A DNA stretch of 64,000 bases from Actinomycetota bacterium (lineage in GTDB: Bacteria; Actinomycetota; Acidimicrobiia; IMCC26256; PALSA-555). Where the stretch lies: the NCBI GenBank assembly GCA_016870355.1, contig VGBR01000001.1, forward strand, positions 57,574 through 121,573, read 5' to 3'. This document shows positions 28,497 to 50,180 of this stretch, one piece after another. Each line of letters begins with the position of its first letter. Position 1 is the first letter of the stretch. The notes below the pieces were generated by a model. It ran no database searches. It was not told the DNA's origin and saw only the letters and a program-made list of their open reading frames with translations. The position numbers were made by a program, and so were the translations under genes.

Positions 28497-28541
28497 TTCG
28501 GCACGCTGGTTGTTGCTATGCAACATCGAGCGTGCCGAGAA
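28497..28541. repeat. Hairpin repeat copy 1 (TTCGGCACGCTG...AGCGTGCCGAGAA), spans the selA stop codon and selA-selB junction
   Basis: Left arm at 28497-28508, right arm at 28529-28541. The inner loop is itself palindromic (TGTTGC TA TGCAACA). The right arm is identical to those at 30839-30851 and 50168-50180. Confidence 0.7.
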
Positions 28542-29859
28542 CCCCGCGCAGGGCGTCGATCAGCCGGTCGTCGTCGGTCGGGTCGACGGTGCGAAGATCG
28601 GCGACGACCGTGTCGCGTTCGGCGCGCCCAACAATCTGGTGATCACGCAAGGCTGCGAGCGCGCGGTCGACGGACGACACCTCGATCGCTACCCCGACCG
28701 ACGGGATCGTGAGCCCAGGGAGCGAGCCGCCACCCGCGACGGCTTCCGTGTCGACGACCTTGGCGCGCGGCACTGCGGTTGCGATCTGCTCGGCCCGGGC
28801 GCGCAGCTCGTCGAGCGATGCCATCGCCATGCGCCACAGCGGGATCGACCTGGCGTCGCCCGCGAGGTACGCGAACGCGACGTGCTGGAGCGCGGCGAGC
28901 GTCATCTTGTCGGCACGCAGTGCCCGCGCGAGCGGGTGGCGGGCAATCGTCTCGATGAGCTCGGCCTTCCCGACGATCACACCCGCCTGCGGTCCGCCGA
29001 GCAGCTTGTCGCCCGAGAACGTGACGACCGCCGCGCCTGCGTCGAGCGCCTGACGGACGCCGGGTTCGTCGTGCAGCCAGGTCGGGCGGTGCGGGAGCCA
29101 CGGTGTGGTGTCGTCGAGGAGCCCGGAGCCAGCGTCGACCATGACCGGCGGGCCAAGTGCGGCGAGCTCGTCGACGGGCGCTGCCTCGGTGAAGCCGATC
29201 ATCCGGTAGTTCGATGCGTGCACCTTCAGCACCAGCGCCGTCTCGTCGCGTAGCCGTGCCGCGTAGTCGCTCACACGCGTGCGGTTGGTGGTTCCCACCT
29301 CGATCAACACGCAGCCCGATTCCGCCATGATCTCCGGCACGCGGAAGCCGCCACCGATCTCGACCAGCTCGCCACGAGAAACCACGACCTCACGACCGCG
29401 GGCCAGCGCACCGAGGCACAGCAGCACCGCAGCCGCGTTGTTGTTCACGACGAGCCCGGCCTCCGCGCCGCATGCCTGCGCCAGCAGGGCGCCGGCGTGA
29501 TCGTGGCGGGATCCGCGCTCGCCCTCCGGCAGTCGGTACTCAAGGTTCGAGTACCCACTCGCGACATCGCGCACGGCGTCCAGTGCGTCGAGCGAGAGGG
29601 GCGCGCGCCCCAAGTTCGTGTGCACGATGACCCCGGTCGCGTTCACGACGGGTTGGAGCAATGCGCGCCGTCGTGCCTCAACCCGATTTCGGGCGTCGGC
29701 GATGACCGTGCCCTCGTCGACGGTCTCTCCGGACACCGCTCGATCGCGCGCTGCGTCCACCGCATCGCGTGCACATTGCGCGAGAAGGTCGTGCGGCAAG
29801 CCGGCGATCGCGCTGAGTACACGGTCGACGCCCGGCAGCGCGCGACGAGGGTCGTTCAC
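28516..29859 (-). CDS. selA: L-seryl-tRNA(Sec) selenium transferase SelA
   Basis: 447 aa. N-terminus LPGVDRVL, NNNAAAVLL, and PLP-lysine region FSGDKLLGGPQAG. Confidence 0.9.
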   Translation of the reverse strand: MNDPRRALPGVDRVLSAIAGLPHDLLAQCARDAVDAARDRAVSGETVDEGTVIADARNRVEARRRALLQPVVNATGVIVHTNLGRAPLSLDALDAVRDVASGYSNLEYRLPEGERGSRHDHAGALLAQACGAEAGLVVNNNAAAVLLCLGALARGREVVVSRGELVEIGGGFRVPEIMAESGCVLIEVGTTNRTRVSDYAARLRDETALVLKVHASNYRMIGFTEAAPVDELAALGPPVMVDAGSGLLDDTTPWLPHRPTWLHDEPGVRQALDAGAAVVTFSGDKLLGGPQAGVIVGKAELIETIARHPLARALRADKMTLAALQHVAFAYLAGDARSIPLWRMAMASLDELRARAEQIATAVPRAKVVDTEAVAGGGSLPGLTIPSVGVAIEVSSVDRALAALRDHQIVGRAERDTVVADLRTVDPTDDDRLIDALRGVLGTLDVA

Positions 29860-29963
29860 GCGTGCAAGCGTAGGTCGGGGTCGGCAGAGGCCGACCGGGC
29901 GACTCCTACAATGTGAGGGTGAAGCACCCTGGCAGCGCCGCGTGGATCGCGCGGGGGTGATCG

Positions 29964-30803
29964 GTGCCTGATCTCACACCGGGCGTGCCGAGCGCGCTCT
30001 CACCGCTGGTTCGGCGCATCGTCGCTCGCAATCCCGGTCCGTTCACCGGGCCCGGCACGAACACCTACCTCGTCGGCATCGATGAAGTCGCGGTGATCGA
30101 TCCCGGGCCGGACGACAAGGCTCACGTCGACGCGATCATCGGCGCGTCGATGAAGGAGCGCGTGCGGTGGGTGCTGCTCACGCACACGCACCCCGATCAC
30201 TGGCCGGCGACGAAGCGGCTCGTGAAGGCGACCAAGGCCGAGCTGCTGATGTTCGGCAAGCGCGACAAGGACGTCGACCTGACACCGGCGCGAGTTCTCG
30301 AAGAAGGCGACACGATCGAGGGCAGCGAGTTCGGGCTCGAGGTGTTGCACGCACCCGGTCACCATCCGCAGCACGTCTGCTATCTGCTCGAGGAGGAGCG
30401 CGTGCTGTTCACGGGTGACACGGTGCTCGAAGGGATGTACTCGGTGGTCAACCCGTCCCGCGGCGGCGACATGGCCGTGTACGTCAAGACGTTGGAGCGG
30501 CTCCGTCGGCTGCGACTCAGCCGGATCGCCCCCGGCCACGGTGACGTGATCGAGGAGCCGAAGGTGCGACTCGACGACTACCTCTCACACCGTCGTCAGC
30601 GCGAGTCGCAGATTCTCCGGCTGCTGAAGAAGAAGGACGGCGCCAAGGTGAAGGATCTCGTCGCCGACATCTACGGCAGCGACGAGCTCCCGCCCGAGCT
30701 GATCGAAGCCGCGGGATGGCAAGTGCATGCCCACCTCGTGAAGCTGAAAGCCGAAGGCAAGGTCACCGGCACGACGGCGAAGGCAACCTGGACCGCCGTC
30801 TGA
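29964..30803 (+). CDS. MBL-fold metallo-hydrolase
   Basis: THTHPDH metal motif, HAPGHHP, and a C-terminal winged-helix-like tail. GTG start. Confidence 0.8.
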   Translation: MPDLTPGVPSALSPLVRRIVARNPGPFTGPGTNTYLVGIDEVAVIDPGPDDKAHVDAIIGASMKERVRWVLLTHTHPDHWPATKRLVKATKAELLMFGKRDKDVDLTPARVLEEGDTIEGSEFGLEVLHAPGHHPQHVCYLLEEERVLFTGDTVLEGMYSVVNPSRGGDMAVYVKTLERLRRLRLSRIAPGHGDVIEEPKVRLDDYLSHRRQRESQILRLLKKKDGAKVKDLVADIYGSDELPPELIEAAGWQVHAHLVKLKAEGKVTGTTAKATWTAV

Positions 30804-30806
30804 CAG

Positions 30807-30851
30807 TTCGGCACGTGCAACGACCTGGGGAGTCGCTCAGCGTGCCGAGAA
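30807..30851. repeat. Hairpin repeat copy 2 (TTCGGCACG...CAGCGTGCCGAGAA) between convergent MBL and mrp genes
   Basis: Left arm at 30807-30815, right arm at 30838-30851. The right arm can alternatively pair with the downstream CTCGG (CCGAGAATCCTCGG). Confidence 0.65.
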
Positions 30852-30859
30852 TCCTCGGG

Positions 30860-32167
30860 TTAGGTCTTCGCGGCGGCTTGGTCGGCGAGTTCGAGGATTC
30901 TTGCTGTGCAGCCGGCCATCTCGATTGGTGGCGCGAGGTCGTCGACGAGCTGGGCGGCGAGCTCGTGGAAAGCGACGCCGGCGGGGCTGTCGGGTGCGCT
31001 GAGCGCGATCGGCCTCCCGGTGTCGCTGCCCTCGGAGAGCGACGGCTCGAGGGGGATCTGCGCGACCAGCGGCGCGCTGATCTCGTCAGCCAGAGCCTTC
31101 CCGCCACCCTCACCGAAGACCGCGAACCGCTCGCCCGAGGGCGCGACGAACTCACTCATGTTCTCGACGACGCCGACGACCTTGAGGTACGAGCGGCGAG
31201 CCATGTCGGCAACTCGCACCGCGACGCGCTGCGCCGCGACCGCCGGCGTCGTGACCACGAGCAGCTCCGACTGGGGAAGCATCCGCGCGAGGCCCATCTG
31301 GATGTCACCCGTGCCGGGTGGCAGGTCGATGAGCAAGTAGTCCATCTCGCCCCAGCGCACGTCGTTGAGGAACTGCTCGACCGCCTTGGTGAGGATGAGG
31401 CCGCGCCACATGAGCGCGGTGCCTTCGTCGTCGACGAGGAATCCCATCGACACGACCTTGAGAAGTCCGGCAGGACCGTTGGTGTCGAGCGTGTTCGGCA
31501 CCTCGACCGTGTTCGGGTGGATCTTCCCCTCCGCTCCGCCGAGGCGGCCTTCGACACCGAGCATGCGCGGGACGCTGAAGCCCCAGATGTCAGCGTCGAG
31601 CACGCCGACGGTGAGCCCGCGCGATGCGAGCGCCGCCGCGAGGTTCACCGTCACCGACGACTTGCCTACACCGCCCTTGCCGCTCGCGACCGCGAGGACT
31701 CGCGTGGTCGCGAGCACCTCAGTCGGTTCCGCGTCCTCGCGTGCTTGCCACCGGGCGCGCTGCATCGCGGTCGCCTTCTGCTCTTGGGTCATCTCGCCGT
31801 ACTCGACGTCGACCTCGGTGACGCCGGGAAGCCCGCGCACCTTCGACTGCACCTCAGACTTGATCTGACCGCGCAGCGGGCACCCCGCGGTGGTGAGCGC
31901 GACCTTGACCTTCACCTTCCCGTCGGGTGACACCTCCACGTCGTCGACCATGCCGAGCTCGACGATGCTGAGGTGCAGCTCGGGATCGATGACGCCCGCG
32001 AGCATCCGCCGGACGTCGTCGGGCGACGGGGCGGGGCCGGCAAGAGGTGCATGGATCGCGGCGCCGCTGTCGTCCTCCATGGGCCAGCTCTCTCCGCTCC
32101 GGGATACCCGGAGCGGCCCTTCGGGTCGTTCGCCGGCGGCGGGATCAGGCGTCTGCATGACAGTCAC
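30860..32167 (-). CDS. apbC: Mrp/ApbC-family Fe-S cluster carrier ATPase with N-terminal DUF59/MIP18 domain
   Basis: DUF59 region VIDPELHLSIVELGMV, P-loop ASGKGGVGKSS, and a CxxC-less ParA/Mrp core. Start uncertain (32167 or ATG 32080). Confidence 0.85.
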   Translation of the reverse strand: MTVMQTPDPAAGERPEGPLRVSRSGESWPMEDDSGAAIHAPLAGPAPSPDDVRRMLAGVIDPELHLSIVELGMVDDVEVSPDGKVKVKVALTTAGCPLRGQIKSEVQSKVRGLPGVTEVDVEYGEMTQEQKATAMQRARWQAREDAEPTEVLATTRVLAVASGKGGVGKSSVTVNLAAALASRGLTVGVLDADIWGFSVPRMLGVEGRLGGAEGKIHPNTVEVPNTLDTNGPAGLLKVVSMGFLVDDEGTALMWRGLILTKAVEQFLNDVRWGEMDYLLIDLPPGTGDIQMGLARMLPQSELLVVTTPAVAAQRVAVRVADMARRSYLKVVGVVENMSEFVAPSGERFAVFGEGGGKALADEISAPLVAQIPLEPSLSEGSDTGRPIALSAPDSPAGVAFHELAAQLVDDLAPPIEMAGCTARILELADQAAAKT

Positions 32168-32187
32168 GACAATAAAACCAGTCGATC

Positions 32188-32216
32188 TTGAAAATATGCC
32201 CCTCCCGGGCTACCGT
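32188..32216 (+). promoter_or_regulatory. Candidate sigma-70-type promoter for the ArsR/SufR-like gene
   Basis: TTGAAA (32188-32193), a 17-nt spacer, then TACCGT (32211-32216), in the only AT-rich stretch of the divergent intergenic region. Confidence 0.3.
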
Positions 32217-32278
32217 CAATCGGCAGTGAGCGAACGTCCGCGGGCCGGGTATCCCGGCACGCAGAGAGCGAACCAGTA

Positions 32279-32950
32279 GTGATGGATCTGAACGTGTTGA
32301 AGGCGCTCGCCGACGACACCCGATACGCGGTCTACCGAGAGCTGGCGTCATCGACGGCCGCGCTTTCGGCGCAGGACTTGGCCGATCGGCTCGGTGTTCA
32401 CGCCAACACCGTGCGTCTGCACCTCGAGCGACTGCGCGACGCCGGTCTCGTCGATGCCGAAGCGGTGCACCGCGGCACGGTCGGGCGACCGCAGCACCTC
32501 TACTTCCTCGCCGCGGGCGCGCCGGGGCTCGGGTTCGACCCGCCCGCGCACGCGTTGCTCGCCGGCTTGCTCGCCGCGTTGGGTGAGCGTGTCGGCGCCG
32601 ACGCCGATGACGCGGCCGACACCGGGCATGCGTGGGGGGTTGAGGCGGGTCGACGCACACGCTCGCGGTCGTGCGTGAAGGCGCTCGAGTCCGAGCTGCA
32701 TCGCCTCGGCTTCGAGCCGGGGGTCGAGCAGGGCGACGGCACGTCCGAAGGCGGCACCCGCATCGAGTTCCTGCACTGCCCGTTCCGCGAGCTCGCCGAG
32801 GCGTACCCGGAGCTCGTGTGCAACCTCCACCGCGGGCTCTGCGAAGGCGTGGTCGACCAGGTGGGCGGGGGAACAGTCGAGGAGTTCGCGACGTTGTATG
32901 ACCCCGAACCGTGCCATGTCACGGTTGCGGTCGGGTACCCTGACGAATAA
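32279..32950 (+). CDS. ArsR-family HTH regulator with Cys-containing C-terminal domain (SufR-like)
   Basis: wHTH region LKALADDTRYAVYRELA...LADRLGVHANTVRLHLERLRDAGLV. The C-terminal half has four Cys (HCPF, VCNLHRGLCEGV, PEPCHV). It sits between mrp and erpA. Confidence 0.7.
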   Translation: MMDLNVLKALADDTRYAVYRELASSTAALSAQDLADRLGVHANTVRLHLERLRDAGLVDAEAVHRGTVGRPQHLYFLAAGAPGLGFDPPAHALLAGLLAALGERVGADADDAADTGHAWGVEAGRRTRSRSCVKALESELHRLGFEPGVEQGDGTSEGGTRIEFLHCPFRELAEAYPELVCNLHRGLCEGVVDQVGGGTVEEFATLYDPEPCHVTVAVGYPDE

Positions 32951-32973
32951 CCGCACGGAGGCAAGGGAAGATC

Positions 32974-33330
32974 ATGTCGACGTTCACCGTTACCGACGCC
33001 AGCCAGACGTTCCAGGTGAGCGACGCGGCCGCGGCAAAGGTCAAGGCGCTCATCGAGGCTGAGGATGAGAGCGACGGCCTCGTGCTCCGGGTTGCTGTCC
33101 GCCCCGGCGGGTGCTCCGGCTTCAGCTACGAGATGTTCTTCGACACCGACGTTGCCGCCGACGACCTCCAGACCGAGCGCGACGGCATCAAGGTGGTCAT
33201 CGACCCCGCGAGTCAGCAGATGCTCAAGGGTGCGCAGCTCGATTACAAGGACGGTCTCCAGGGCGCCGGGTTCTCCATCAGCAACCCGAACGCTCAGCGC
33301 AGCTGCGGCTGCGGCCAATCCTTCTCGTAG
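32974..33330 (+). CDS. erpA: HesB/IscA/ErpA-family Fe-S cluster insertion protein
   Basis: 118 aa. LRVAVRPGGCSGFSY and C-terminal CGCGQSFS. Confidence 0.9.
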   Translation: MSTFTVTDASQTFQVSDAAAAKVKALIEAEDESDGLVLRVAVRPGGCSGFSYEMFFDTDVAADDLQTERDGIKVVIDPASQQMLKGAQLDYKDGLQGAGFSISNPNAQRSCGCGQSFS

Positions 33331-33459
33331 ATCCACGCCGCACACCGCTCTCAACTGTCGCGGAATGCCGCCAATCTCGCCGCGTTCGGGTTACGCTTTC
33401 TTGCGCGTTCGAAAGGTGACGCGAGCCTGACGCGCCACGCTGGTTGAAGGGAGCGATCC

Positions 33460-34068
33460 ATGTCATCCACCTGGCCGCCCAACCCACCTCTAGGTGGTGG
33501 GCCCCCGAGCACTCCGAGTCCGTCGCCGACACCGTGGCCGGGCCGAAGGCCCACTCCGAGTCCGCCGACGCCACCGTCGCCGCGGCCTTGGGAGCCAGTT
33601 GCGCCGGCAGCGCCACCCGCTCCGCCGAGCCCACCGTCACCGGCCCCTGCGCCGGCGGCGTCCAAGCCGGCGAAGAAGAAGGCCACCAAGAAGAAGGCAG
33701 CCAAGAAGAAGGCAGCCAAGAAGGCTGCGAAGAAGAAGAAGGCGCCGCCGAAGCACAAGGCCGCGGCGAAGAAGCGTCCTGCGAAGAGGAAGGCCGCGAA
33801 GCGCAAGGCGCCGGCACGCCGGAAGGCCGTCAAGCGCAAGGCCACCAAGAAGCGCGCGACCAAGCGTCGGGCGACCAAGAAGCGGGCGACCAAGAAGCGG
33901 GCGACCAAGAAGCGGGCGACCAAGAAGCGGGCGACGAAGAAGCGCGCAACCAAGAAGCGTCCCGCGAAGCGCCGCGCGACGAAGAAGCGTCCGGCTCGCA
34001 AGACCGCCAAGCGGCGTCCGGCCAAGCGCACGGCAGCGAAGCGCAAGGCGACTCGCAAGCGCCGCTGA
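33460..34068 (+). CDS. Intrinsically disordered Pro-rich / Lys-Arg-Ala-repeat basic protein (histone H1-like tail composition)
   Basis: 202 aa. The N-terminal 65 aa are Pro/Ser/Thr-rich. The rest consists of AKKK/KKRAT repeats. In this frame the third codon positions are almost all G/C (GCG ACC AAG AAG CGG). GAAGGGAG RBS 6 nt upstream of the ATG. A hairpin terminator follows. Confidence 0.65.
33841..33960 (+). repeat. Eight tandem copies of a 15-bp coding repeat (GCGACCAAGAAGCGG = ATKKR)
   Basis: Units start at 33841, 33856, 33871, 33886, 33901, 33916, 33931 and 33946. The four central copies are identical. Confidence 0.85.
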
Positions 34069-34087
34069 CGCACCAAGAAGGAGCTGA

Positions 34088-34112
34088 GGGGCCCGCCGCA
34101 AGGCGGGCCTCT
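34088..34112 (+). terminator. Hairpin terminator after the basic-protein gene
   Basis: GGGCCCGCC GCAA GGCGGGCC followed by TCTTC. Confidence 0.5.
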
Positions 34113-34195
34113 TCGCGTCGGCGGCGCGTAGGCGGCGGCTTTGCCGACCGCCGGAGCATGGAGTCGTCGCCTGCGACGGCGACCAATGGAGGCGC

Positions 34196-35056
34196 TTAGG
34201 TGAGCGCGTCGAGGAGGTGGATCATCTCCTGCTGACCGAACGCGCCATCGAGACGGCCGGCGATCGTCCCGCTGGCGTCGACGGTGAACATCCACGGTTC
34301 GGTGGGGAGACCCCACGCTTCGACCGTCGGCACGAGATCCGTCGTGCGGTTGTTCTGGTAGATCTCGACGTGCACGAACTTCGTGTCGGGGTAGCGGTCG
34401 CGGATCGACAGCATCGTGTCGAGGACCGGTCCGCAGTACTCCGACTGGCAGCGTGCCGGTGTGCCGAAGAGCACCGCGACCGGAACTCCGGAGCCGATCA
34501 GGTCAGTGAGCGACTCGTCGTGCAGATCACAGCGCGGCTGCCGCGTGCAGATCGGCTTCACATCGAGCGAGTCAGCGAGCGTGGGGGACGGTGCGCGAGA
34601 CGCAGCGTGGCCGGGCAACGGCGCGAGCGGTGCCGCGTTCACCTGGATCGCGAACTCGATGTCTCGCTTCTCCACGCGCGCGAAGCCGTTCCACACACCC
34701 GCGACATCGAGCACCGGCGTTGCCTCGTAGATGCCCCGGCCTTCGGGGATCCCCTTCTTGTAGAAGATCGTCGGCTCAAGGGTGACGTCGGTGCGGCCGG
34801 CCACCTCGGGTGAGACGAACCCGACGCGAACAGGAGGTCCCGAGACGTACCCCTTGCTCGAGCCCAGTCCGAAGATCACCCGTTGCGGATCGGGCGACAC
34901 ATAGAGGTCACTCGAAAGCACGAGTGCGCCTAGCTGCTTCCCGAGCTCGTGCTCTTCGCCCTCGTGCGCGAACGCAACCTCAGGGAGTGCGGATGCGACC
35001 ACGAGCCCACCGGACGCCGCGAGGAACGCGCGTCGAGAGATCTGCGAGTGATCCAT
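34196..35056 (-). CDS. Tat-signal thioredoxin-fold-like secreted protein
   Basis: The ATG at 35056 gives [17 protein letters not shown], a twin-arginine signal. [19 protein letters not shown] is a Cys pair in a thioredoxin-like context. The upstream part of the track ORF overlaps the divergent gene. Confidence 0.7.
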
Positions 35057-35078
35057 CCCCCTATCCTGCCAATCGGCC

Positions 35079-36809
35079 ATGGCGAAGTCGGATCGGGTCA
35101 CCTTCACCTGCAACGGCGCACCGGTTGACGTCGAGATCCACCCTGACGAGTCGCTGCTCTCGGTTCTGCGGGAGCGACTCGGAATCATCTCAGTGAAGGA
35201 CGGCTGCGCCCCGCAGGGTCAATGCGGGTGCTGCACCGTGCTCGTAGACGGTTCACCCAGAGTCGCGTGCGTCACCGCGGCAAGTCGCGTTGAGGGCCGA
35301 ACGATCACGACGATCGAGGGTGTCGATCCGTCGATTCGCTCGCAGCTGGTGGACGCGTTCGTCGCGACGGGCGCATCGCAATGCGGCTTCTGCACGCCGG
35401 GCATCCTCGTGCGGGCGACGGGCTTGCTCGGAAACGGCCGGACCGACCGCGCCGCGGTCGACCGTGCACTGGCAGCGCACCTCTGCCGGTGCACTGGCTG
35501 GTGCACGATTCGCGAAGCCATCAATGCGGCAGCAACCGCGATGCCCATGGATGCATCAGCTCGGCGTGACCTCGATGCGGCCGCGCGACGGGCGGAGCTC
35601 GAAGGGGGAGTTGCACAGCGCGTCGGCGCCGATGTTCCGATCGGCGATGGTGGGTTCGCTGACGACACCGGGCCGCGTGACGCATTGGTCGCCGTCCCCG
35701 CGATTTGCTCCGACGCACCGACGACAGACGCGGCCGGCCTGAGCTGGGTGATCGCTGACACGCTCGATGCCGCGCGCGCTCAGGCCGGAAAGGTGCAGGG
35801 TCGGCGCACGACCGTCGAGCCGGCCCCGCCGCTCACGTCCGCGCCGTGCCCGGATGGCGGCGTGCGCCTCGCGACCGGATGGCTGGAACCCGCGTACCTC
35901 GAGCCCGACGCATCGTGGTGTGCGCCCGGCGGTGAGCCTGCGTCACCGCTCGCGAACGGCGGTGCGTTCGGTGGCAAGGAGACGTCAGTCGTCGCCACCG
36001 CGGCCCGAGAGCTCGCCGATCAGTTCGGCCGTCCGGTGCGAACGGTCCTCGCGCGAGAGGACGTCGTGCGCTTGGGACCGAAGCGGCCGCCGATCGCCGC
36101 CACGGCGGTGCTGCGCGACGGGCGAGTCGACATCAATGGAACGGTCGCCGGCGCACTCGAACGGTTCACCGCCCCGCTCGCACTCGCGTACCGACTCGAT
36201 CTCACCGAGTCGTGGACGGAGCAGATCGCTCCGGGGCCGCCCGTCGGAGCACACGCGCGCGCGACCGGACTCGCAGAACGAACGATCCTCGTCGAGGGCG
36301 CAATCGACGCGGCCGGCGTCGCTCGCGCCGACCTCGTCACCGACGACCGCCTCGCCAACGTGCTGCTCGACGCCTGCGCACTCGTCGACGGCGGTGCCGC
36401 GGCGGGCGCGCGCGTTCACGTCGATCCGAATACCGGCGCATTGCAACGCGTCGATGTGCGAGTGGCTGCTGGCGATCCACTCGACGAGGTCGTGCTGCGC
36501 TCCTACGCGATCGGCGGCGCGCACATGGCACTCGGCTGGGTGCTGAGCGAGGGACTGACCGTTGATCCCGCAACCGGTGAGGTCCTCGACCTGACCATCC
36601 GATCGTTCGGTGTGCTGCGGGCGAAGGACACGCCGCCGATCGAGATCACGATCGTGGACGACCCGGCACCCGCGCGGCCGCGCAGCTCAGACGCCGTCTT
36701 CGCGGCGGTTGCCGCAGCGACCTGGAACGCCATCACCACCGCAGAGGGCGAGCGTCCGGAGAGCTTTCCGGCTCGTGGGGTACGCGCGGCTCGGCGACTG
36801 CGCACCTGA
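35079..36809 (+). CDS. Fusion of a 2Fe-2S (CoxS/XdhC-small-subunit type) domain with a shortened xanthine dehydrogenase-family molybdopterin-subunit-like region
   Basis: The N-terminal ~155 aa carry both 2Fe-2S motifs (CAPQGQCGCCTV, QCGFCTPG...LCRCTGW). Downstream are GGAFGGKE and a C-terminal IGGAHMALGW...DTPPIEI, resembling XDH/CoxL segments. That portion is only ~420 aa. Confidence 0.75.
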   Translation: MAKSDRVTFTCNGAPVDVEIHPDESLLSVLRERLGIISVKDGCAPQGQCGCCTVLVDGSPRVACVTAASRVEGRTITTIEGVDPSIRSQLVDAFVATGASQCGFCTPGILVRATGLLGNGRTDRAAVDRALAAHLCRCTGWCTIREAINAAATAMPMDASARRDLDAAARRAELEGGVAQRVGADVPIGDGGFADDTGPRDALVAVPAICSDAPTTDAAGLSWVIADTLDAARAQAGKVQGRRTTVEPAPPLTSAPCPDGGVRLATGWLEPAYLEPDASWCAPGGEPASPLANGGAFGGKETSVVATAARELADQFGRPVRTVLAREDVVRLGPKRPPIAATAVLRDGRVDINGTVAGALERFTAPLALAYRLDLTESWTEQIAPGPPVGAHARATGLAERTILVEGAIDAAGVARADLVTDDRLANVLLDACALVDGGAAAGARVHVDPNTGALQRVDVRVAAGDPLDEVVLRSYAIGGAHMALGWVLSEGLTVDPATGEVLDLTIRSFGVLRAKDTPPIEITIVDDPAPARPRSSDAVFAAVAAATWNAITTAEGERPESFPARGVRAARRLRT

Positions 36810-36840
36810 CCGTGCTCGCTCGCCGGATAACGTCGATCTC

Positions 36841-36984
36841 GTGATCGGCGGAATCATCTTCGTCGTGGCGATGGTGATTGTGGTGCCCGTCGGCGTGATG
36901 TTCGCCGGCGCGGCGTGGAGCGCCGTCCTCGGCTGGAGCGCGTCGTGCGACTTCGCATCGCCGAAGAGCGACGAGAGCGAGTAG
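36841..36984 (+). CDS. Possible small hydrophobic peptide (47 aa)
   Basis: A GTG start gives IGGIIFVVAMVIVVPVGVMFAGAAWSAVLGW with one or two TM helices. No strong RBS. Confidence 0.25.
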   Translation: MIGGIIFVVAMVIVVPVGVMFAGAAWSAVLGWSASCDFASPKSDESE

Positions 36985-37086: not shown

Positions 37087-37087
37087 A

Positions 37088-37778: not shown

Positions 37779-39104
37779 TCACAACGACCCAAGGTAGCGG
37801 TCGATCTCCCAGGGCGTCACTTGGGTTCGGTACTCGGCCCATTCGTCGCGCTTGTTGCGGATGAAGTAGCCGAAGACGTGCTCGCCGAGTGCCTCCGCGA
37901 CCAGATCGGAGCCCTCCATCACGTCGATCGCCTCGCCGAGTGATTGCGGCAGCGCCGCGATCCCTTCGGCCGCGCGCTCCTCGGGCGTGAGCTCGAAGAT
38001 GTTGTTCGTGGCTTCTGGCGCGAGGTCGTACCCCTCTTCCACACCCTTGAGCCCGGCGGCGAGGATCACCGAGAACGCGAGGTACGGGTTGCACGCGGGG
38101 TCTGGCGAGCGAAACTCGATGCGCGTCGAGCTCTTCTTGCCCTTCTTGTGCAGCGGAACGCGCACGAGCGCGGAACGGTTGTTGCGTGCCCAGCACACGT
38201 AGACCGGCGCTTCGTAGCGATGGCTCAAACGCTTGTACGAGTTGACCCATTGGTTCGTGACCGCGGTGATCTCGCGTGCGTGCATGAGCAGGCCGGCGAT
38301 GAAGTGCTTGCCGACCTTCGACAGGCCGTACTCGTCGCCGGGATCGTGGAACGCGTTGACATCGCCCTCGAACAACGACAGGTGCGTGTGCATCCCCGAG
38401 CCGAACTCGCCACCGAGCGGCTTGGGCATGAACGTGGCGTGCACACCGAGATCGTGCGCGACCTTGCGCACGATGTGGCGGAAGGTCATCACGTTGTCGG
38501 CCATCGTGAGCGCGTCGGTGTAGCGAAGGTCGATCTCGTGCTGGCTCGGACCAAGCTCGTGGTGGCTGTACTCGACGGGGATGCCCATTGCCTCGAGGTT
38601 GAGGATCGTGTTCTTGCGCAGGTTCGACACGCTGTCGCCGTGCGTGAGATCGAAGAACCCGGCTTGGTCGAGCGGCTCGGGCTCGTGCGCGTTCTGGAAG
38701 TAGAAGAACTCCATCTCGGGCCCGGCATAGAACGTGAAGCCGCGCTCACGCGCCCGTTCGAGGTTGCGCTTGAGCACGAAGCGCGGGTCGCCGTCGAACG
38801 GCTCCGTGGTGATGTGGTGCACGTCGCAGAAGATCCGCGCCGTGGGGGCGTCCTCGTCGTGCCACGGGACGATCTCGAAGGTGCTGGCGTCCGGCATCAG
38901 GAGCATGTCGGACTCCTGGACCCGGCTGTAGCCCTCGATCGCCGACCCGTCGAAGGTCATGCCTTCCTCGAGCGCCACCTCGATCTCGGCTGGCGTGACC
39001 TCGAAGCTCTTGAGGAACCCGAGGACGTCGGTGAACCAGAGCCGCACGAAGCGGACCCCGCGCTCCTCGACGGTCCGCAGCACGTAGTCCGACTGCGCCT
39101 GCAT
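37779..39104 (-). CDS. glnA: Glutamine synthetase, GlnA2-like type I
   Basis: 441 aa from ATG 39104, with a GAGGAGGTG RBS upstream. VRFVRLWFTDVLG, FDGSAIEG, and catalytic-domain motifs GSGMHTHLSLF, NSYKRL and RIEFRSPD. Confidence 0.9.
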   Translation of the reverse strand: MQAQSDYVLRTVEERGVRFVRLWFTDVLGFLKSFEVTPAEIEVALEEGMTFDGSAIEGYSRVQESDMLLMPDASTFEIVPWHDEDAPTARIFCDVHHITTEPFDGDPRFVLKRNLERARERGFTFYAGPEMEFFYFQNAHEPEPLDQAGFFDLTHGDSVSNLRKNTILNLEAMGIPVEYSHHELGPSQHEIDLRYTDALTMADNVMTFRHIVRKVAHDLGVHATFMPKPLGGEFGSGMHTHLSLFEGDVNAFHDPGDEYGLSKVGKHFIAGLLMHAREITAVTNQWVNSYKRLSHRYEAPVYVCWARNNRSALVRVPLHKKGKKSSTRIEFRSPDPACNPYLAFSVILAAGLKGVEEGYDLAPEATNNIFELTPEERAAEGIAALPQSLGEAIDVMEGSDLVAEALGEHVFGYFIRNKRDEWAEYRTQVTPWEIDRYLGSL

Positions 39105-39328
39105 AGGGTCCACCTCCTCTGGTCGCCCTCGCAAGCTTCGGGCTCCCGCAGTGCAGCGGTCGGCGAGGCCGCCGCTGTACTGCCAGTGTGACAGGTGAGG
39201 CCAATCGTTCTGCGAGCCGAAATGCAGGCCAGAGCGAGCGGCCGCGCCTGCAGGGGTGTTGCGGCGCAACGAGCGTTCGCCGAATTGGAGGGGAGCGGTC
39301 CGGCGCGAAGCGCCGAGAGCGGGGAGGC

Positions 39329-39379
39329 GTTCACACGCCGTTCACAGTCGGGCAACGGGAGGGAAACCGCCGATGTGAC
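39329..39379 (+). promoter_or_regulatory. GlnR/PhoP-box-like direct repeats upstream of glnA1
   Basis: GTTCAC (39329) and GTTCAC (39340) lie 11 nt apart. They are followed by GCAAC (39352), GAAAC (39363) and GTGAC (39375) at 6-7 nt spacings. This resembles the gTnAc-n6-GaAAc GlnR sites and 11-nt GTTCACC PHO repeat units described in Streptomyces. Confidence 0.4.
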
Positions 39380-39425
39380 AGGCTCCTTCGCGTTCAGATC
39401 CGAGAGAGGAAAGAAGGGACCACCA

Positions 39426-40861
<1,436 letters not shown>

Positions 40862-40862
<1 letters not shown>

Positions 40863-41583: not shown

Positions 41584-44364
41584 TCACTCGTCGTTGCCGT
41601 AGAACACCCGCTCTACGACGCGACGCGCCTGGCGCGTCAAGCGGCGGTATTCCTCGCGCAGCTCCATCTCGGGGCGATGCGTGTAGCCGAGCAGTCGCGC
41701 GATGCGCGCCGCGGGAGGTCCCGTAGGCAGGGCATCTCCCGGCGTGCCCACCACGAGATAGCGAGCGTTCCGCGCTCGCTCGCAGAACCGATATGCCTCC
41801 GACAACACCTGCACATCGCCAGCGTCGAGGATCGCCGCCGCGCCCAGGCGGTCGAGTGCCTGCATGGTCGAAGCAGCCCGGATCTCGGGCCGCGTCGCGC
41901 CGTGTTGGAGTTGGAGCAGCTGCACAGTGAACTCCACATCGGTGAGCGCGCCCTTCCCGAGCTTGAGATGGAACTCGGGATCCTCGCCGGGAGGGATGCG
42001 CTCGCGCTCCACACGAGCCTTGATGCGCCGGACCTCCCGTGCGTCGTCCTCCGGGAATGGGTCGCGATACACGAACGGTTCGACGAGATCGATGAAGCGC
42101 GCGGCGAGATCCATGTCACCGGCGACGGGTCGCGCGCGTAGCAGTGATTGAAGCTCCCAAGGCAGCACCCACTGCTCGTAGTACTGACGGAAGCCATCGA
42201 GCGATCGGGCGAGGACGCCGTGCTTCCCTTCGGGGCGGAGGTTGGCGTCGATGCGGAAGGCCTGTCCTTCGGCGGTCGTTGCGCCGATCTCGGCCATGAG
42301 TGCAGTGGCGATCGCCTCAGCAGTAGCGAAGTCGTCCGAGCTCGAGCCGTCGTAGACGAAGAGCACGTCGATGTCGGACGCGTACGAGAGCTCGCTGCCT
42401 CCCAGCCGACCCATGCCCATGACGGCGAACGGCAATGCCGGTTCCAATGCCTGGAGGCTTGCTTGCACACACGCGTCGGCAAGGTCGGCCAGCTCACGCG
42501 CGGCAGTCTCAATCGGCGAGAGACCGACGAGGTCACGCGAGGCGATGCGAAGCAGCTCGCGCCGCTTGAATCGACGCAGGCCCGACCGGCGCGCCTCGGC
42601 GTCCGCGCGCCAGCCGAGCGTCTCGAGCGCGGTGCCCGTCAGCTCGTCGGGATCGCGCGGTCGCCCCAACCAGTCGTCATCACCGAGCAGCTCAACGACC
42701 TCGGGTTGGCGCAGCAACGCGTCACCGATGAGACGGCTCGATCCGATGATCCGGCAGACGCGCTCTGCTGCGCCCGGATGTTCACGGAAGGTAAGAGCGA
42801 GCGCACGTGCTTGCGTCGGTCCCTCCGCGAGCCGCCGCAGCTGGAGCAATCCCAGATCGGGATCAGGCGACTCCGAGAGCCAATCGAGCACGACCGGGAG
42901 AAGCTGCTGCATCACGCGCGACCGGCGGGTCAGGCCTTGGGTGAGGTCTCGCAAGGCGGCCCGCGTGTGCGCGGCGTCTCCGAACCCGAAGGCCGCCAAT
43001 CGTTCCACGGCCGCTTCGGAGGGCAGCGGGCCGGCTCCGGCCAACGCGTCGAGGATCGGCGCGAAGAACAACCGCTCATGGATCGACCGAACGGTGGTCT
43101 GGTGTGTGCGGTGGTCAACCTCGAACAGCTCGACCGCGCTCTGGCGTGGCGAATCTCGATAGCCGAGGACACGAGCGAGCCGCTGCCGGCTGGTGTCATC
43201 GGTTGGCAAGGTGTGCGTCTGCTGCTCGTCCCAGAGCTGAAGTCGGTGCTCGACCGTGCGCAGGTACACGTACGCATCCGAGAGCCGGTGCGCGTCAGCA
43301 GGCTCGATGTAGCCCGCGGCCGCGAGCTGGCGGAGGGCGTCGAGCGTGGTTGCCGAACGGATGGCGCCGTCGTGGCGCCCATGCACGCGCTGGAGCAGCT
43401 GCACCGCGAACTCGATGTCGCGGATGCCACCCGGTCCGCGCTTGAGCTCGCGTTCGTCGATGCCTTTGCGCCGCAGCTCTGCTTCGGAGCGCGCCTTCAT
43501 GGCTCGCGCTTCACGCACTGCGTCGGGGTCCAGCACGTCCGGCCACACGAACGGCTGCGCCATCTGGAGGTGTCGGTCTCCGAGCTCGCGGTCGCCGGCC
43601 ACGACCCGCGCTTTGATGAGCGCCTGGAACTCCCACGGGCGCGCCCAGCGCGAGTACCAGGTCTCGTAGCTCTCGAGGTTGCGCGAGATCGCGCCCGCAG
43701 CGCCCTCGGGTCGGAGGTCGGCATCGGTTCGGAACACAAGGCCGTCAGCGGTGGGGGTGGACATCGTGCTGAGCACGGAGCGCGCCACGCGCTCGGCCTC
43801 AGTGAGCGCGCCGTCGTGAACGAACAGGACGTCGACGTCGCTCGCGTAGTTGAGTTCGACACCGCCGAGCTTGCCCATGCCGATGATTGCGAACGGCGCA
43901 GTCGGTGCGGCGATGTGCAGCGCTTCACCGAGGCACACCTCGGCCAGTGCCGCGAGCTCGCGACCAACCGCGGGCATGTCGGCGATCCCGAGGAGGTCGC
44001 GCACAGCGATGCGGAGGTACTCCCTTCGCTTCCAGTAGCGCAGGCGTCGTGCGGGATCCTCCTCGGACGGCATGGTCGCCAAAGATTCCGCGTAGCTCTC
44101 GACCTCGCGCTCGGAGCTCACCGCGTCACCCTGCAAGGCCTCCAACAGCGACGCGTCCGCGACGACCGCAGTGGTCAACGAGCGGGACGCACACCCGATC
44201 GCGATGAGACCGTCGCGAAGGACCGCGTTGGTCTCCAACAAGGCGATGACGTCGGGGTGTGCGTCGACGACGCGCTCGAGTACCGCTCGTGCGACGACGG
44301 CATCGGGCGACTGCTCGAGCGCGGACTCGAGTGCCGGAGTGTCGAGCACCGACGTCGTCGCCAC
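41584..44364 (-). CDS. glnE: Bifunctional glutamine synthetase adenylyltransferase/adenylyl-removing enzyme GlnE
   Basis: Two nucleotidyltransferase halves (GMGKLGGVELNYASDVDVLFV and GMGRLGGSELSYASDIDVLFV). GTG start at 44364 preferred. The track's first 75 codons have non-coding composition and would overlap the divergent glycine-rich gene. Confidence 0.9.
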   Translation of the reverse strand: MATTSVLDTPALESALEQSPDAVVARAVLERVVDAHPDVIALLETNAVLRDGLIAIGCASRSLTTAVVADASLLEALQGDAVSSEREVESYAESLATMPSEEDPARRLRYWKRREYLRIAVRDLLGIADMPAVGRELAALAEVCLGEALHIAAPTAPFAIIGMGKLGGVELNYASDVDVLFVHDGALTEAERVARSVLSTMSTPTADGLVFRTDADLRPEGAAGAISRNLESYETWYSRWARPWEFQALIKARVVAGDRELGDRHLQMAQPFVWPDVLDPDAVREARAMKARSEAELRRKGIDERELKRGPGGIRDIEFAVQLLQRVHGRHDGAIRSATTLDALRQLAAAGYIEPADAHRLSDAYVYLRTVEHRLQLWDEQQTHTLPTDDTSRQRLARVLGYRDSPRQSAVELFEVDHRTHQTTVRSIHERLFFAPILDALAGAGPLPSEAAVERLAAFGFGDAAHTRAALRDLTQGLTRRSRVMQQLLPVVLDWLSESPDPDLGLLQLRRLAEGPTQARALALTFREHPGAAERVCRIIGSSRLIGDALLRQPEVVELLGDDDWLGRPRDPDELTGTALETLGWRADAEARRSGLRRFKRRELLRIASRDLVGLSPIETAARELADLADACVQASLQALEPALPFAVMGMGRLGGSELSYASDIDVLFVYDGSSSDDFATAEAIATALMAEIGATTAEGQAFRIDANLRPEGKHGVLARSLDGFRQYYEQWVLPWELQSLLRARPVAGDMDLAARFIDLVEPFVYRDPFPEDDAREVRRIKARVERERIPPGEDPEFHLKLGKGALTDVEFTVQLLQLQHGATRPEIRAASTMQALDRLGAAAILDAGDVQVLSEAYRFCERARNARYLVVGTPGDALPTGPPAARIARLLGYTHRPEMELREEYRRLTRQARRVVERVFYGNDE

Positions 44365-44412
44365 CGATCCAGTGTCGCATCGACGCGAGCCCGCTTCGGC
44401 TGGAGACCTTCC

Positions 44413-45338
44413 GTGCGGGCTCGGGCGGCGGCGCTGCTGTGTTCGGTGATCCTGATCGCGGGTGCACTCGCGCTCAGTGGTGGGAGCCAGATCGGCGCCG
44501 TGCCGGTGAACACTCCGTTCTTGGCCAACGGCACGTATCCGGTGCCGGCCGACGTCTGCTCGATCTCGGTCGTGGCCATCGGCGCGCAAGGCGGCGCGTG
44601 CGCGCCTGATGGCCCGAACGGAGATGGCGCGTCGTGGCCACCGTGAGCGTGACGCCCGGCGAGACGCTCACGGTCGTCGTCGGGACCGCCGGCGGCGCCG
44701 GGGTCGGCAACGTGCCCGGAACGGCCGGGGTGCCTGGCGGAGGCGCAGGCGGAAGCGGAGTGTTCGCGGGCGGTGGCGGCGGTGGTCTGTCGAGCGTGTC
44801 GCGTGGCGCAACCGCGCTGGTCGTCGCGGCGGGAGGCGGCGGCGGTGGCGGCGGTGGCCAAACCGGCAGCGCGAAGGGCGACGGCGGCGCGGGCGGTCAG
44901 ACGGGCGACGATGGCCTCGACGGTGATGGCACCGCGCCACCGGGCGGTGGCACGCTCGGCGCCGGAGGGTTGTCTGGCGGCAACGGCGGGACGGGCGGCG
45001 GCCCCGGTGGCGCGGGTGGGACCGGTGTCACAGGAACGGCCGGAACTGGCGGCACCAGCGGAACCTCGGCGAACAACCAGGCCGGCGGGGGTGGTGGCGG
45101 CGGCGCAACCGGTGGCGGTGGCGGCGGAGGGTCTGCGACTCCCGGTGGCTCCAACGGCGGCGGCGGTGGCGGCGGTTCCAGCACGGGTCCGGCTGGCGCG
45201 GTGTTCACGACCGGGATCGTCGGCCAGATGACGAACGACGGTCTGGTCAACATCACGGCAGACGCCGCTGCGGGAACATGTCCCGCGTCGACGCCGGCCA
45301 CGCCGGTCGAGGCCGACCCCGCTTCGCTCACCGGCTGA
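44413..45338 (+). pseudogene. Secreted glycine-rich protein, reading frame interrupted near 44630
   Basis: The GTG at 44413 gives the signal peptide RARAAALLCSVILIAGALALSGG, then NGTYPVPADVCSISVVAIGAQGG, ending at TGA 44644. The sequence continues logically in the -1 frame from 44634 (ATVSVTPGETLTVVVGTAGG... then long poly-Gly tracts). Inserting one G in TCGTGGCC (to TCGGTGGCC) would fuse the two parts. Confidence 0.6.
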
Positions 45339-45376
45339 CCGACAGCGAGCACCGGGGCCGCTCGTATCCTGGTGAC

Positions 45377-47086: not shown

Positions 47087-47089
47087 CGC

Positions 47090-47983: not shown

Positions 47984-48098
47984 TCTCCTCGATGTGTCGC
48001 TCGCTGCGAGTCGGGATACCCGACTCGCGGGCGTTCGCTCCTGGGCGAGCGCCTCCGCTTCGCTTTGGCGCCGCGCGCGACACGAGTAGCCTGGATTC

Positions 48099-48572
48099 GT
48101 GGCGACGGCAGGGCTCACGATCGACGACACCGCGCGGTTTCTCAGCCACGCGACGTGGTTGGAACGACGGCTCTTCGAGGTGCTCGGCGGTTGGGTCTCC
48201 GACACCACGGACCCGGCGATCAAGCTGGCCCTCGCCCGTCACTCTCGGCTGCACGCCGAGCACGGGGCCGTGCTCGAGCCGCTTCGGCCCGACACCCGGG
48301 ACCACGATGTCGCGCAACGGGCCCCCCTCGACGCCAGGTGGCGCACCCTTGTGTCGAAGATGCTGGCCGCATCCACCACGGCCGCAAGATTGGAGCGACT
48401 CATCGAGGTGCTCACCGGCGCGATCACTTGCTACGAGCAGGCCAGGGGCGCCATGCGGGCCGTGCGGGACGCCCCCGTGCAGCGGGCGCTGGCTGTCGTG
48501 CTGGCCGACGAGCAGGCCGAGGTGGCCGAGCTCGAAGCGCTCCGCAGAATCGATGCAGGAACCGGCCGCTAG
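48099..48572 (+). CDS. Hypothetical protein (helical, no family recognised)
   Basis: 157-aa ORF with high GC3 in this frame. The longer antisense ORF 47910..48620 has poorer composition. Confidence 0.5.
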   Translation: MATAGLTIDDTARFLSHATWLERRLFEVLGGWVSDTTDPAIKLALARHSRLHAEHGAVLEPLRPDTRDHDVAQRAPLDARWRTLVSKMLAASTTAARLERLIEVLTGAITCYEQARGAMRAVRDAPVQRALAVVLADEQAEVAELEALRRIDAGTGR

Positions 48573-48760
48573 CGCCGATACCATGACAGGCCCCCCAACG
48601 GGGGACGAACCCACGAACACACCTGTGGAAGGCCTCGCTTGACGAGGTCGTTATGGTACGGAGAGCGGCCGCCCCCCGACCGCCGTGACCAGGGAAGATC
48701 CACCGCCGTCGGGCGGTTGTCCACAAGCTGTACCCGCCGCTGAGACCCCGAAAGGCATTT

Positions 48761-49702
48761 GTGGCCAAGGAGCGCGTCGAGCGGGACGAGGAAGATCTCG
48801 TCCGGCTCTATCTGACTGACATCGGGCAGTACCCACTGCTCACCAAGGACGACGAGGTTCGCCTCGCCCAGCAGATCGAGCGGGGGAACGCTGGGCGTGA
48901 GGAGTTCGAGCGCACGCCGGCCAAGAAGCTCACACCGGCGAAGAAGCGCGAGCTCCGCAAGATCGCTCGTGAGGGCGAGACGGCCCAGCGCACGTTCGTG
49001 CAGTCGAACCTGCGGCTGGTGGTCTCGATCGCCAAGAAGTACCAGGCGTCTGGCCTGCCGCTGCTCGACCTGATCCAAGAGGGCAACCTCGGCCTGATGC
49101 ACGCGGTCGAGAAGTTCGACTGGCGCAAGGGCTTCAAGTTCTCGACGTACGCGACGTGGTGGATCCGTCAGGCCATCACGCGAGGCATCGCCAACACCGG
49201 TCGCACGATCCGCTTGCCGGTGCACGCGGGCGACACGTTGGCGCGCCTCCAGAAGGCGCGGTCACGACTGGAGCTCAAGCTCGGTCGCCCGGCCACGCTC
49301 GCCGAGCTCGCGATCGAAGTCGAGATGCCCGAGGACAAGGTCACCGAGGCGTTGCGCTTCGCGGCCGAGCCGCTGTCGCTGTCGGAGCCGCTGCGTGAAG
49401 ACGGCGACGCCGAGCTCGGCGACATCGTCGAGGATCGCTCGGCAGAGTCGCCGTTCGAGGTGGCGGCCACCGCGCTGCTGCCCGACGAGATCGAGAAGCT
49501 GCTCGCTCCGCTCGACGAGCGCGAGCGTCATATCCTCGCGTTGCGATTCGGACTTGATCGCGGCGAGCCGCGCACGCTCGAAGAGGTTGGTGAGTACTTC
49601 AACCTCACGCGCGAGCGCATCCGTCAGATCGAAGCGCGTGCGATGAGCAAGCTTCGTCACCCGTCCGCCGACACCGGCGCCCGCGACCTGCTGGCGGTCT
49701 AA
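48761..49702 (+). CDS. RNA polymerase sigma-70 family factor, group 1/2 (SigB/HrdB-like, short N-terminus)
   Basis: Regions 1.2 to 4.2 are present: LYLTDIGQYPLLT, NLRLVVSIAKKY, LIQEGNLGLM.AVEKFD..KG.KFSTYATWWIRQAI, and TLEEVG..F.LTRERIRQIE. Confidence 0.9.
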   Translation: MAKERVERDEEDLVRLYLTDIGQYPLLTKDDEVRLAQQIERGNAGREEFERTPAKKLTPAKKRELRKIAREGETAQRTFVQSNLRLVVSIAKKYQASGLPLLDLIQEGNLGLMHAVEKFDWRKGFKFSTYATWWIRQAITRGIANTGRTIRLPVHAGDTLARLQKARSRLELKLGRPATLAELAIEVEMPEDKVTEALRFAAEPLSLSEPLREDGDAELGDIVEDRSAESPFEVAATALLPDEIEKLLAPLDERERHILALRFGLDRGEPRTLEEVGEYFNLTRERIRQIEARAMSKLRHPSADTGARDLLAV

Positions 49703-49727
49703 CCACCACAGGTCCGGGTCAGGTTGA

Positions 49728-49751
49728 GAAGCCCCGCTTCGGCGGGGCTTC
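49728..49751 (+). terminator. Hairpin terminator after the sigma factor gene
   Basis: GAAGCCCCGC TTCG GCGGGGCTTC, a perfect 10-bp stem 26 nt after the stop. Confidence 0.6.
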
Positions 49752-49827
49752 GTCGCGATCGGCTGTCCACGCGTCTGTTTCGGCGTGATGATGGTCGCGG
49801 TGGGGACCGAGTCTCCGGCGCTCGTGG

Positions 49828-50125
49828 GTGTACCTGGCGGTGATGACGCTGACGCCGCTCGGCACGACCGGGAGGTGGGCCGCAATCGTCGACAATGTTG
49901 GCGGTCCGAGCCTCGTCGAGTACGACCTCGACACCGACACGACCGTGCGTCCGCTCGCTGAGCTGGGCTGACTTCGGCGTGAACATCGCCGGTGGGAGCG
50001 CCGACGGTCAGCACGTGTTGCTGCTCGTGCCGAACGGGAGCGGCGGCTTCGACCTCTCTCGCTGGTCCGAAGGCGACGCCGTCGCGACCTTCGTCGCTGA
50101 GGACATCGTCGCCGCCGACTGGTGA
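49828..50125 (+). pseudogene. Short frameshifted ORF remnant (unknown family)
   Basis: A high-GC3 frame encodes ...AAIVDNVGGPSLVEYDLDTDTTVRPLAELG and stops at TGA 49969. Coding signal then continues in another frame (DFGVNIAGGSADGQHVLLLVPNGSGGFDLSRW...), ending at 50125. Confidence 0.3.
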
Positions 50126-50133
50126 CACCCACA

Positions 50134-50180
50134 TTCTCGGCACGCTGAACAGCAAATACGTGTCTTCAGCGTGCCGAGAA
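50134..50180. repeat. Hairpin repeat copy 3 (TTCTCGGCACGCTGAA-N15-TTCAGCGTGCCGAGAA) immediately 3' of tRNA-Sec
   Basis: Perfect 16-bp inverted repeat with a 15-nt loop. It ends 11 nt from the 3' end of selC on the minus strand, so it likely acts as its terminator. Confidence 0.75.

Follow-up and report, generated by a model that had tools for sequence, protein, structure and literature searches.

A dispersed 47-nt hairpin repeat at gene ends in high-GC Acidimicrobiia, with probably incidental copies beside selenocysteine genes

The stretch analysed here, a 64-kb window of contig VGBR01000001.1 from a bacterium of the class Acidimicrobiia (below, 'the window' means this whole stretch of 64,000 nt), holds three hairpins with a common right arm: one on the selA–selB junction, one between two convergent genes and one beside the gene for the selenocysteine tRNA (tRNA-Sec). 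Are these hairpins part of the selenocysteine (Sec) machinery, serving its co-regulation or its co-mobility, as a preliminary description of the sequence had considered? Probably not. The reading we favour is that all three belong to a dispersed family of 47-nt palindromes in high-GC Acidimicrobiia, analogous to the repetitive extragenic palindromic (REP) and REPIN elements of Proteobacteria and to the TRIT hairpins of Mycobacterium tuberculosis, and that their proximity to Sec genes is incidental. The element is a bounded, oriented, hairpin-forming repeat which lies past stop codons, in either orientation, and carries no U-tract. The family is apparently new, of a kind already known, the REP-like dispersed palindrome.

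The hairpins themselves are as the preliminary description gave them. Their right arm, AGCGTGCCGAGAA, is identical in the three copies, and as an exact 13-mer it is present at just four places in the window (as the right arm of each copy and, in copy 3, as the left arm too), against a chance expectation of about 0.002 for 64 kb and both strands by our own arithmetic; the rarity claimed for it thus holds. Read in register, every copy measures 47 nt and follows the scheme TCGGCACG-N23-AGCGTGCCGAGAA. Copies 1 and 2 replace the consensus left end TTCT by AATT and AGTT, respectively, and so differ at the outermost positions only. A covariance model (R1), built from 104 family members and then run on the window, gives the three copies 30–52 bits, and its next-best score is 13.4 bits (E 0.09); the window thus has no fourth copy. 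The folding energies of copies 1 and 3 are −36 to −42 kcal/mol, with z-scores of −4.8 to −9.0. Copy 2 is a decayed member whose inner stem is weakened and whose left end reads AGTT. In copy 3 the outer stem is fully symmetric, forming the perfect 16-bp stem noticed at first sight, and the inner part pairs poorly. The positions first assigned to the copies were also borne out. Copy 1 sits on the selA–selB junction with the TAG stop of selA (28516–28518) within its loop, and the ATG of selB (28476) follows 19 nt beyond the element, a Shine-Dalgarno-like GAGGGA lying between. Copy 2 occupies the 56-nt gap of the convergent genes for a metallo-beta-lactamase (MBL)-fold hydrolase and for Mrp, starting 1 nt past the stop of the MBL gene and ending 8 nt short of that of mrp. 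Copy 3 begins 8 nt past the stop of a possible open reading frame (ORF) of 76 codons, and its distance to the 3′ end of tRNA-Sec is 11–12 nt.

How far does the family extend? The pattern TCGGCACG-N18-30-AGCGTGCCGAGAA was run over 185,579 species genomes and yielded at least 117 element-bearing loci (numbered with the prefix L in this text). Among the matches listed, 131 of 158, the four of the window included, have an exact span of 44 nt; the other spans are mostly single and come from records named as unrelated taxa, and these off-span matches are taken to be chance. A relaxed-match scan of the collected loci returned 120 matches against none in reversed sequence, and 104 of the 120 share an identical arm spacing of 25 nt. 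The preliminary description had read the loop as variable, 15–22 nt long, and had used this variability as an argument for a hairpin over a protein operator; with the length fixed at 47 nt, the premise of that argument fails. Copies are almost always single in the relaxed scan, one metagenome-assembled genome (MAG; accession prefix CAVYOL) has at least 12 loci, and one locus (L075) holds three copies within 4 kb. Carriers among the matches listed are almost all named Acidimicrobiia, Iamia or Actinomycetota, and all carrier groups checked have a GC content of 67–73%; that of the window is 68%. Canonical copies were also seen, at 67–71% GC, in records labelled Bifidobacterium breve, Bifidobacteriaceae, Alphaproteobacteria and Acidobacteriota. 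The doubtfully labelled carriers are L007, L041, L045, L049, L053 and L109 (CAMDCC), L022, L051 and L072 (CAZCUD), L017, and L021. The last of these, labelled Acidobacteriota, seems by eye to be orthologous to the Acidimicrobiia loci L023 and L011, and the labels or the binning of records of the L007, CAZCUD, L017 and L021 type look wrong. Rfam gave no match on the elements, either in the window at the gathering threshold or in four element-rich loci at an E-value threshold. A literature search for both arm sequences met only chance matches in human primers, and one on palindromic repeats of Acidimicrobiia found nothing relevant by title or abstract; the 47-nt family is apparently undescribed. 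A scan of viral contigs for the element gave zero matches.

The anatomy of the element was read from 104 distinct family copies, with pairs counted per position. The outer stem, of 13 bp, is almost invariant (TTCTCGGCACG(C/T)T ... AGCGTGCCGAGAA). Its positions 1–11 pair with 37–47 as TTCTCGGCACG / CGTGCCGAGAA, essentially without variation; at position 12/36, 42 copies have C-G and 57 have T.G or C.A, and position 13/35 is T-A. A conserved mismatch follows at 14/34, where C.C (39 copies) and G.G (38) prevail and a Watson-Crick pair is found in only 23 copies. The inner stem of 8 bp (positions 15–22 with 26–33) varies in sequence and keeps its pairing, with several pair types in each column, and it closes on a loop of 3 nt, most often CAG or CTG. 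Its covariation is strong: 256 cells have changed on both sides, compared with 106 ± 9 in shuffles (none of 500 reached the observed value), and the covariation score is 0.276 in the true register against at most 0.111 in slid registers. Hairpin formation, placement at gene 3′ ends and this covariation are the grounds on which the earlier idea of a REP-like hairpin family stands; its argument from loop length does not. The two asymmetric positions are linked (37 copies concordant, 10 discordant), and the element therefore has an orientation. Inner stems tend to be genome-specific, with CGACAACnGTTGTCG in PFL8, ACCGCGCCnGGCGCGGT in MFD05841 and GTTGCnnnGCAAC common to VAR_35 and CWP5-2. The edge of the element is sharp at 47 nt, since the flanks pair no better than chance: extended into them, the palindrome gains 0.83 contiguous pairs, where shuffled flanks give 0.75 ± 0.11. 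As a side observation, L073 carries a variant pair, TTCTCGGTACG...CGTACCAAGAA, at 6181–6227 and 6242–6288, 61 nt apart, in which compensating substitutions on the two arms turn a C-G pair of the core into T-A. A canonical copy at the same locus (7183–7230) has its arms 26 nt apart.

Could a protein simply bind the element as double-stranded DNA? The strictly fixed spacing and the two invariant half-sites are what a dimeric or tetrameric protein of the transcription factor, nucleoid or gyrase type would use, for instance on two half-sites of 11–13 bp at a fixed centre-to-centre distance of 33–34 bp, about three helical turns. However, double-stranded binding does not require the spacer to covary as a stem, and the strong covariation of the inner stem therefore argues against an ordinary dimeric-protein operator. 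Most copies moreover lie at gene 3′ ends and few at promoters, and a genome would hold tens or more of them beside unrelated genes. A double-stranded site is thus improbable.

The placement of the copies was compared with random positions of the same loci, gene ends near the 104 copies being assigned with a crude gene call based on GC content at third codon positions (GC3). Of the 104 copies, 75 (72%) have a stop codon no more than 45 nt away on one side or both, as against 6.8% of random positions, and gene ends flank 17 of the 104 on both sides, as against 0.3%. The element starts 1 to 32 nt downstream of the stop codon (median 13 nt), and one copy is often common to two convergent genes. 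Orientation is independent of the adjacent gene: on its sense strand G.U and A.C stand at 57 to 57, and C.C and G.G at 23 to 23. A weak, unconfirmed trend links the orientation of the element to local GC skew (49 to 27; binomial p 0.012, t-test p 0.05), which, if real, would fit single-strand transposition. A few copies lie elsewhere. An orthologous copy in L011 (332–378), L021 (6626–6672) and L023 (5632–5678) is found 17 nt before a start codon, and in L021 and L023 it sits between divergent genes. Four others lie 26–68 nt 5′ of tRNA genes, for Ser in L044 (4428–4474), Leu in L057 (5279–5325) and L063 (1437–1483), and Pro in L113 (2540–2586). The L044 copy, 26 nt before its tRNA, leaves almost no promoter space, which hints at transcription through the hairpin.

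A stable GC-rich hairpin shortly past a stop codon, able to serve convergent genes, is also what an intrinsic terminator looks like. The 47-nt family differs from intrinsic terminators in having no 3′ U-tract and in conserving sequence as well as structure. A U-tract was sought 3′ of the copies: the flank there is G-rich, none of the 20 tabulated positions having T in more than 19 of 77 copies, and a consensus terminator scan of the window from 26000 to 33000 flags neither copy 1 nor copy 2. Read towards the element, the flanks are C-rich and G-poor on both sides, with a C/G ratio of 1.5–1.7 over about 20 nt. The C-rich upstream flank was considered as a rut-like site and rejected, as the bias fades to about 1.1–1.2 further out and is too short for Rho.

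The closest actinobacterial parallel is the TRIT family of M. tuberculosis, described as 147 palindromic, mostly bidirectional copies tied to gene termini and restricted to Mycobacterium, for which its authors proposed a factor that binds double-stranded RNA (PMC3152330). Both families are actinobacterial hairpins conserved in sequence and structure and lacking a U-tract. Both are palindromic and mostly bidirectional, with in the order of 100 dispersed copies at gene termini, and in both the conserved sequence points to a putative binding factor. They differ in where they start: TRITs overlap the coding sequence, beginning at about −8 relative to the stop codon, and the 47-nt family at a median of 13 nt past it, copy 1, which overlaps the end of selA, being an exception. 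They also differ, as far as a comparison with TRITs by their description goes, in the fixed length, the invariant outer and variable inner stem and the conserved mismatch of the 47-nt family. The element, of fixed length and with some 21 pairs, is close to the minimum substrate of RNase III.

Might the element then be a host-selected, factor-assisted bidirectional terminator or RNA-processing module, conserved through recognition by a double-stranded RNA-binding protein or RNase III and not through mobility? Its outer stem is invariant across MAGs whose orthologues are 67–94% identical and whose intergenic DNA cannot be aligned, its copies are placed tightly past stop codons with convergent pairs sharing one, and the C-rich, G-poor approach from both sides would suit such a module; for TRIT, a module of this sort had been proposed by Gardner et al. 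(PMC3152330). Yet G.U is no more frequent than A.C on the strand of the adjacent transcript, which speaks against it, as does the missing U-tract. Strong termination would be harmful at copy 1, inside an operon 19 nt before selB, and at the L044 copy before its tRNA, and some relatives have no element at the same gene ends. Later Term-seq work on M. tuberculosis found that TRITs overlap only 2–4% of mapped transcript 3′ ends (bioRxiv 10.1101/2022.06.01.494293). On balance, a selected terminator or processing module seems an unlikely account of the family as a whole.

What, then, of the Sec genes? The closeness of the copies to selA/selB and to tRNA-Sec is most likely coincidence. A Sec-linked element, with hairpins that co-regulate selA, selB and selC or mark a mobile Sec cassette, would account for copy 1 on the selA–selB junction, for copy 3 next to tRNA-Sec and for the fact that the selA–selB block is an indel relative to a syntenic locus (below). 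The family at large points elsewhere. In the 117 element-bearing loci, selA, selB and tRNA-Sec are all absent. Enrichment at sel loci, which the preliminary description had suggested checking, was sought in 80 metagenomic loci of SelA orthologues (49–84% identity, 462 kb), and no copy was found there by pattern or by covariance model, the best score being 16.4 bits, in lineages that may not carry the family at all. The 90 genes abutting copies fall into 111 unrelated Pfam families, the commonest being acyl-CoA dehydrogenases, AMP-binding enzymes, S-adenosylmethionine synthetase and the orthologue of a sigma factor in the window. The 25 commonest Pfam families, in a list that omits those with a single member, include neither sel genes nor transposases, and PHROGs gave no transposase either. 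Genes between element pairs are housekeeping genes (ThiF/MoeB, Sir2, components of 2-oxoacid dehydrogenases), and in the window itself copy 2 touches no Sec gene. The family is thus scattered beside unrelated genes in many genomes, and the reading of the hairpins as Sec-linked, largely refuted, now seems very improbable. A bacterial selenocysteine insertion sequence (SECIS) is a hairpin 3′ of an in-frame UGA in a selenoprotein reading frame, and copies 1–3 are nothing of the kind: the TAG in the loop of copy 1 is the genuine stop of selA, copies 2 and 3 each lie between convergent genes, and their relatives follow the stops of unrelated genes. SECIS was therefore rejected.

The selA–selB region also says something about how copies come and go. 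Copy 1 is a derived, lineage-specific insertion in a normally coupled gene pair, because the stop of selA overlaps or directly abuts the start of selB in 12 of the 15 orthologous junctions read (for example as ATGA, or as TGA with GTG within a few nt), and because the end of SelA in the window is encoded by the element. That end reads ...DALRGVLGTLDVA (GVLGTLDVA and stop), and eight of its last nine codons are encoded by the first arm, the TAG stop by the loop. Copy 1 has thereby remodelled the 3′ end of selA. A locus from an Acidimicrobiia MAG (L035; MFD05502.bin.2.24) is syntenic with window positions 26440–35500. There the MBL gene and mrp are still convergent, with another gene and no element between them, and a copy is present at a site where the window has none. 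In L035 (5456–6372) the MBL gene is followed after about 0.9 kb by whiB, and in the window (26655–29949) the order is MBL, selA, selB, whiB; this selA–selB indel fits a patchy gain or loss of the Sec trait. Do copies 1 and 2 bracket selA and the MBL gene as a mobile unit, as might be supposed? The edges of the indel, at about 26655 and about 29949, coincide with neither copy. Copy 1 is internal to the missing selA–selB piece and copy 2 lies outside it, beyond the MBL gene, and the bracketed cassette was rejected.

A second site is informative in the same way. In L033, L068 and L114 the element directly follows the orthologue of the sigma gene near copy 3, a gene whose product in the window is 94% identical to those of L033 and L114; the window is thus a relative of the carrier MAGs, as the synteny with L035 also shows. 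The window has a plain hairpin (49729–49752) at this place, and copy 3 lies 431 nt beyond it. The three sigma-gene copies share their position and have very different inner stems, the one of L068 resembling other copies of its own genome, which suggests either homogenisation within a genome or repeated insertion. These sites show that copies are gained and lost between related genomes.

Such behaviour is shared with REP and REPIN elements, which are likewise short, imperfect, extragenic palindromes in many dispersed copies. They too are found after stops and inside operons, in either orientation, with a presence that varies between relatives, and their hairpins are kept by compensatory changes; REPINs in particular have two conserved inverted arms around a variable centre of fixed length. 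Several features set the 47-nt family apart. The tags GTAG or CGTC, which Di Nocera and colleagues reportedly took in 2013 as a criterion for REPs, are absent from the foot of the stem, the element starting with TTCTCGG (the beginning of TTCTCGGCACG). Its copies hardly ever form clusters like bacterial interspersed mosaic elements (BIMEs). REP sequences usually differ between species; the arms of the 47-nt element are identical across genera. REP elements are mobilised by REP-associated tyrosine transposases (RAYTs, of the Y1/HUH type), whose gene is typically flanked by inverted copies. For the 47-nt family a search of low power, within some 0.8 Mb around copies, turned up no transposase among the 10 genes between element pairs or the commonest families of the abutting genes.

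How would such a repeat live in the genome? The dispersed-repeat reading would have it spread at the DNA level, by insertion, by gene conversion between copies or by both, and persist shortly after stop codons, where its presence is largely harmless. Where transcribed, the hairpin (about −35 to −42 kcal/mol) would probably act as a barrier or stabiliser that protects 3′ ends against exonucleases, or as a partial attenuator. A strict terminator role seems unlikely, because copy 1, so shortly before the start of selB in an operon, leaves no room for a promoter. The invariance of the outer stem, across MAGs with 67–94% identical proteins and non-aligning intergenic DNA, would imply recognition by a conserved, putative protein, either a transposase or a host factor.

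Several observations weigh against the reading of the hairpins as incidental dispersed repeats. Two of the three window copies touch Sec genes, for which the a priori probability is about 0.01 by a rough, post hoc estimate of our own. Besides the RAYT result, no other mobilising gene was found among the genes beside or between copies, no target-site duplication can be defined, and copy numbers per genome are lower bounds. An outer stem that is identical across genera is better explained by a host-selected site than by a selfish element. A pure 3′-end function does not predict the few copies in 5′ or divergent regions (L011, L021 and L023) or upstream of tRNA genes, and the RNA-level role is one that we infer. 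Another and more pointed proposal is that the hairpin is read by a dedicated protein conserved in Acidimicrobiia, be it a single-strand transposase system analogous to REPIN/RAYT or a 3′-end factor of the type postulated for TRIT. It is suggested by the invariant 13-bp outer stem, the conserved C.C/G.G mismatch, the fixed 47 nt and the genome-specific inner stems, and we put it forward tentatively, as a putative partner with a modest chance of existing.

The three copies and the features around them are collected in Table 1. The window sequence is also present on a 305,784-nt metagenome contig, where independent gene calls agree with those given here and add whiB beside selB. Two further palindromes were noticed. 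A 17-nt palindrome within whiB, CGGCACGCGGCGTGCCG (26446–26462), includes the core of the family, receives 12.5 bits from model R1 (E 0.18) and is probably due to chance. A long hairpin at 11917–11992, 17 nt past a gene stop (11898–11900), has the arms CGCGTCCCGAGAAGGG and CCCTCCTCGGGACGCG, which share 10 of 11 bases with the family arm but stand in inside-out order around a 44-nt spacer; model R1 gives it no score, and it was rejected as a member. Elsewhere the window encodes a bacterial large signal recognition particle (SRP) RNA (90–354, + strand, 164 bits) and a nitrogen-assimilation cluster (37779–40862 and 41584–44589) with two glutamine synthetase genes and glnE, both of which are ordinary housekeeping context.

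Table 1. Positions of the repeat copies and of surrounding features in the window
Feature	Position	Strand	Remarks
Copy 1	28495–28541	-	51.6 bits on -, 45.4 on +; fold −36.5 and −38.7 kcal/mol
Copy 2	30805–30851	+	47.3 bits on +, 30.1 on -; z −1.1 and −2.4
Copy 3	50134–50180	+	48.5 and 46.2 bits; −38 to −42 kcal/mol, z −7.7 and −9.0
whiB	26416–26697	+	Called on the matching metagenome contig; convergent, about 24 nt overlap with selB 3′ end
selB	26674–28476	-	ORF listing, Pfam
selA	28516–29859	-	ORF listing, Pfam PF03841, 7.5e-117
MBL-fold hydrolase gene	29964–30803	+	ORF listing, Pfam
mrp/ApbC	30860–32167	-	ORF listing, Pfam
Sigma-70 family gene	48761–49702	+	Gene context
Plain GC hairpin GAAGCCCCGCTTCGGCGGGGCTTC	49729–49752	+	3′ of the sigma-factor gene
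Possible 76-codon ORF	49895–50125	+	Coding-like GC3 of 0.84; without annotation
tRNA-Sec	50193–50285	-	ARAGORN, Rfam; faces the + strand ORF on the far side of copy 3 (convergent)
Rhomboid gene	50299–51246	-	Gene context

What does the family mean for these bacteria? A false lead is removed, as co-regulation or co-mobility of the selenocysteine machinery by hairpins finds no support. Model R1 can be used to mask or annotate repeats in MAGs of Acidimicrobiia, to flag bins that are probably mislabelled and to account for unusual gene ends, the C-terminus that copy 1 gives to SelA being one. After TRIT, the 47-nt element is a second actinobacterial hairpin that lies at gene ends, is conserved in sequence and lacks a U-tract. 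It revives the question of how 3′ ends are formed in high-GC Actinobacteria, poor as they are in canonical terminators, and of whether a protein reads these hairpins.

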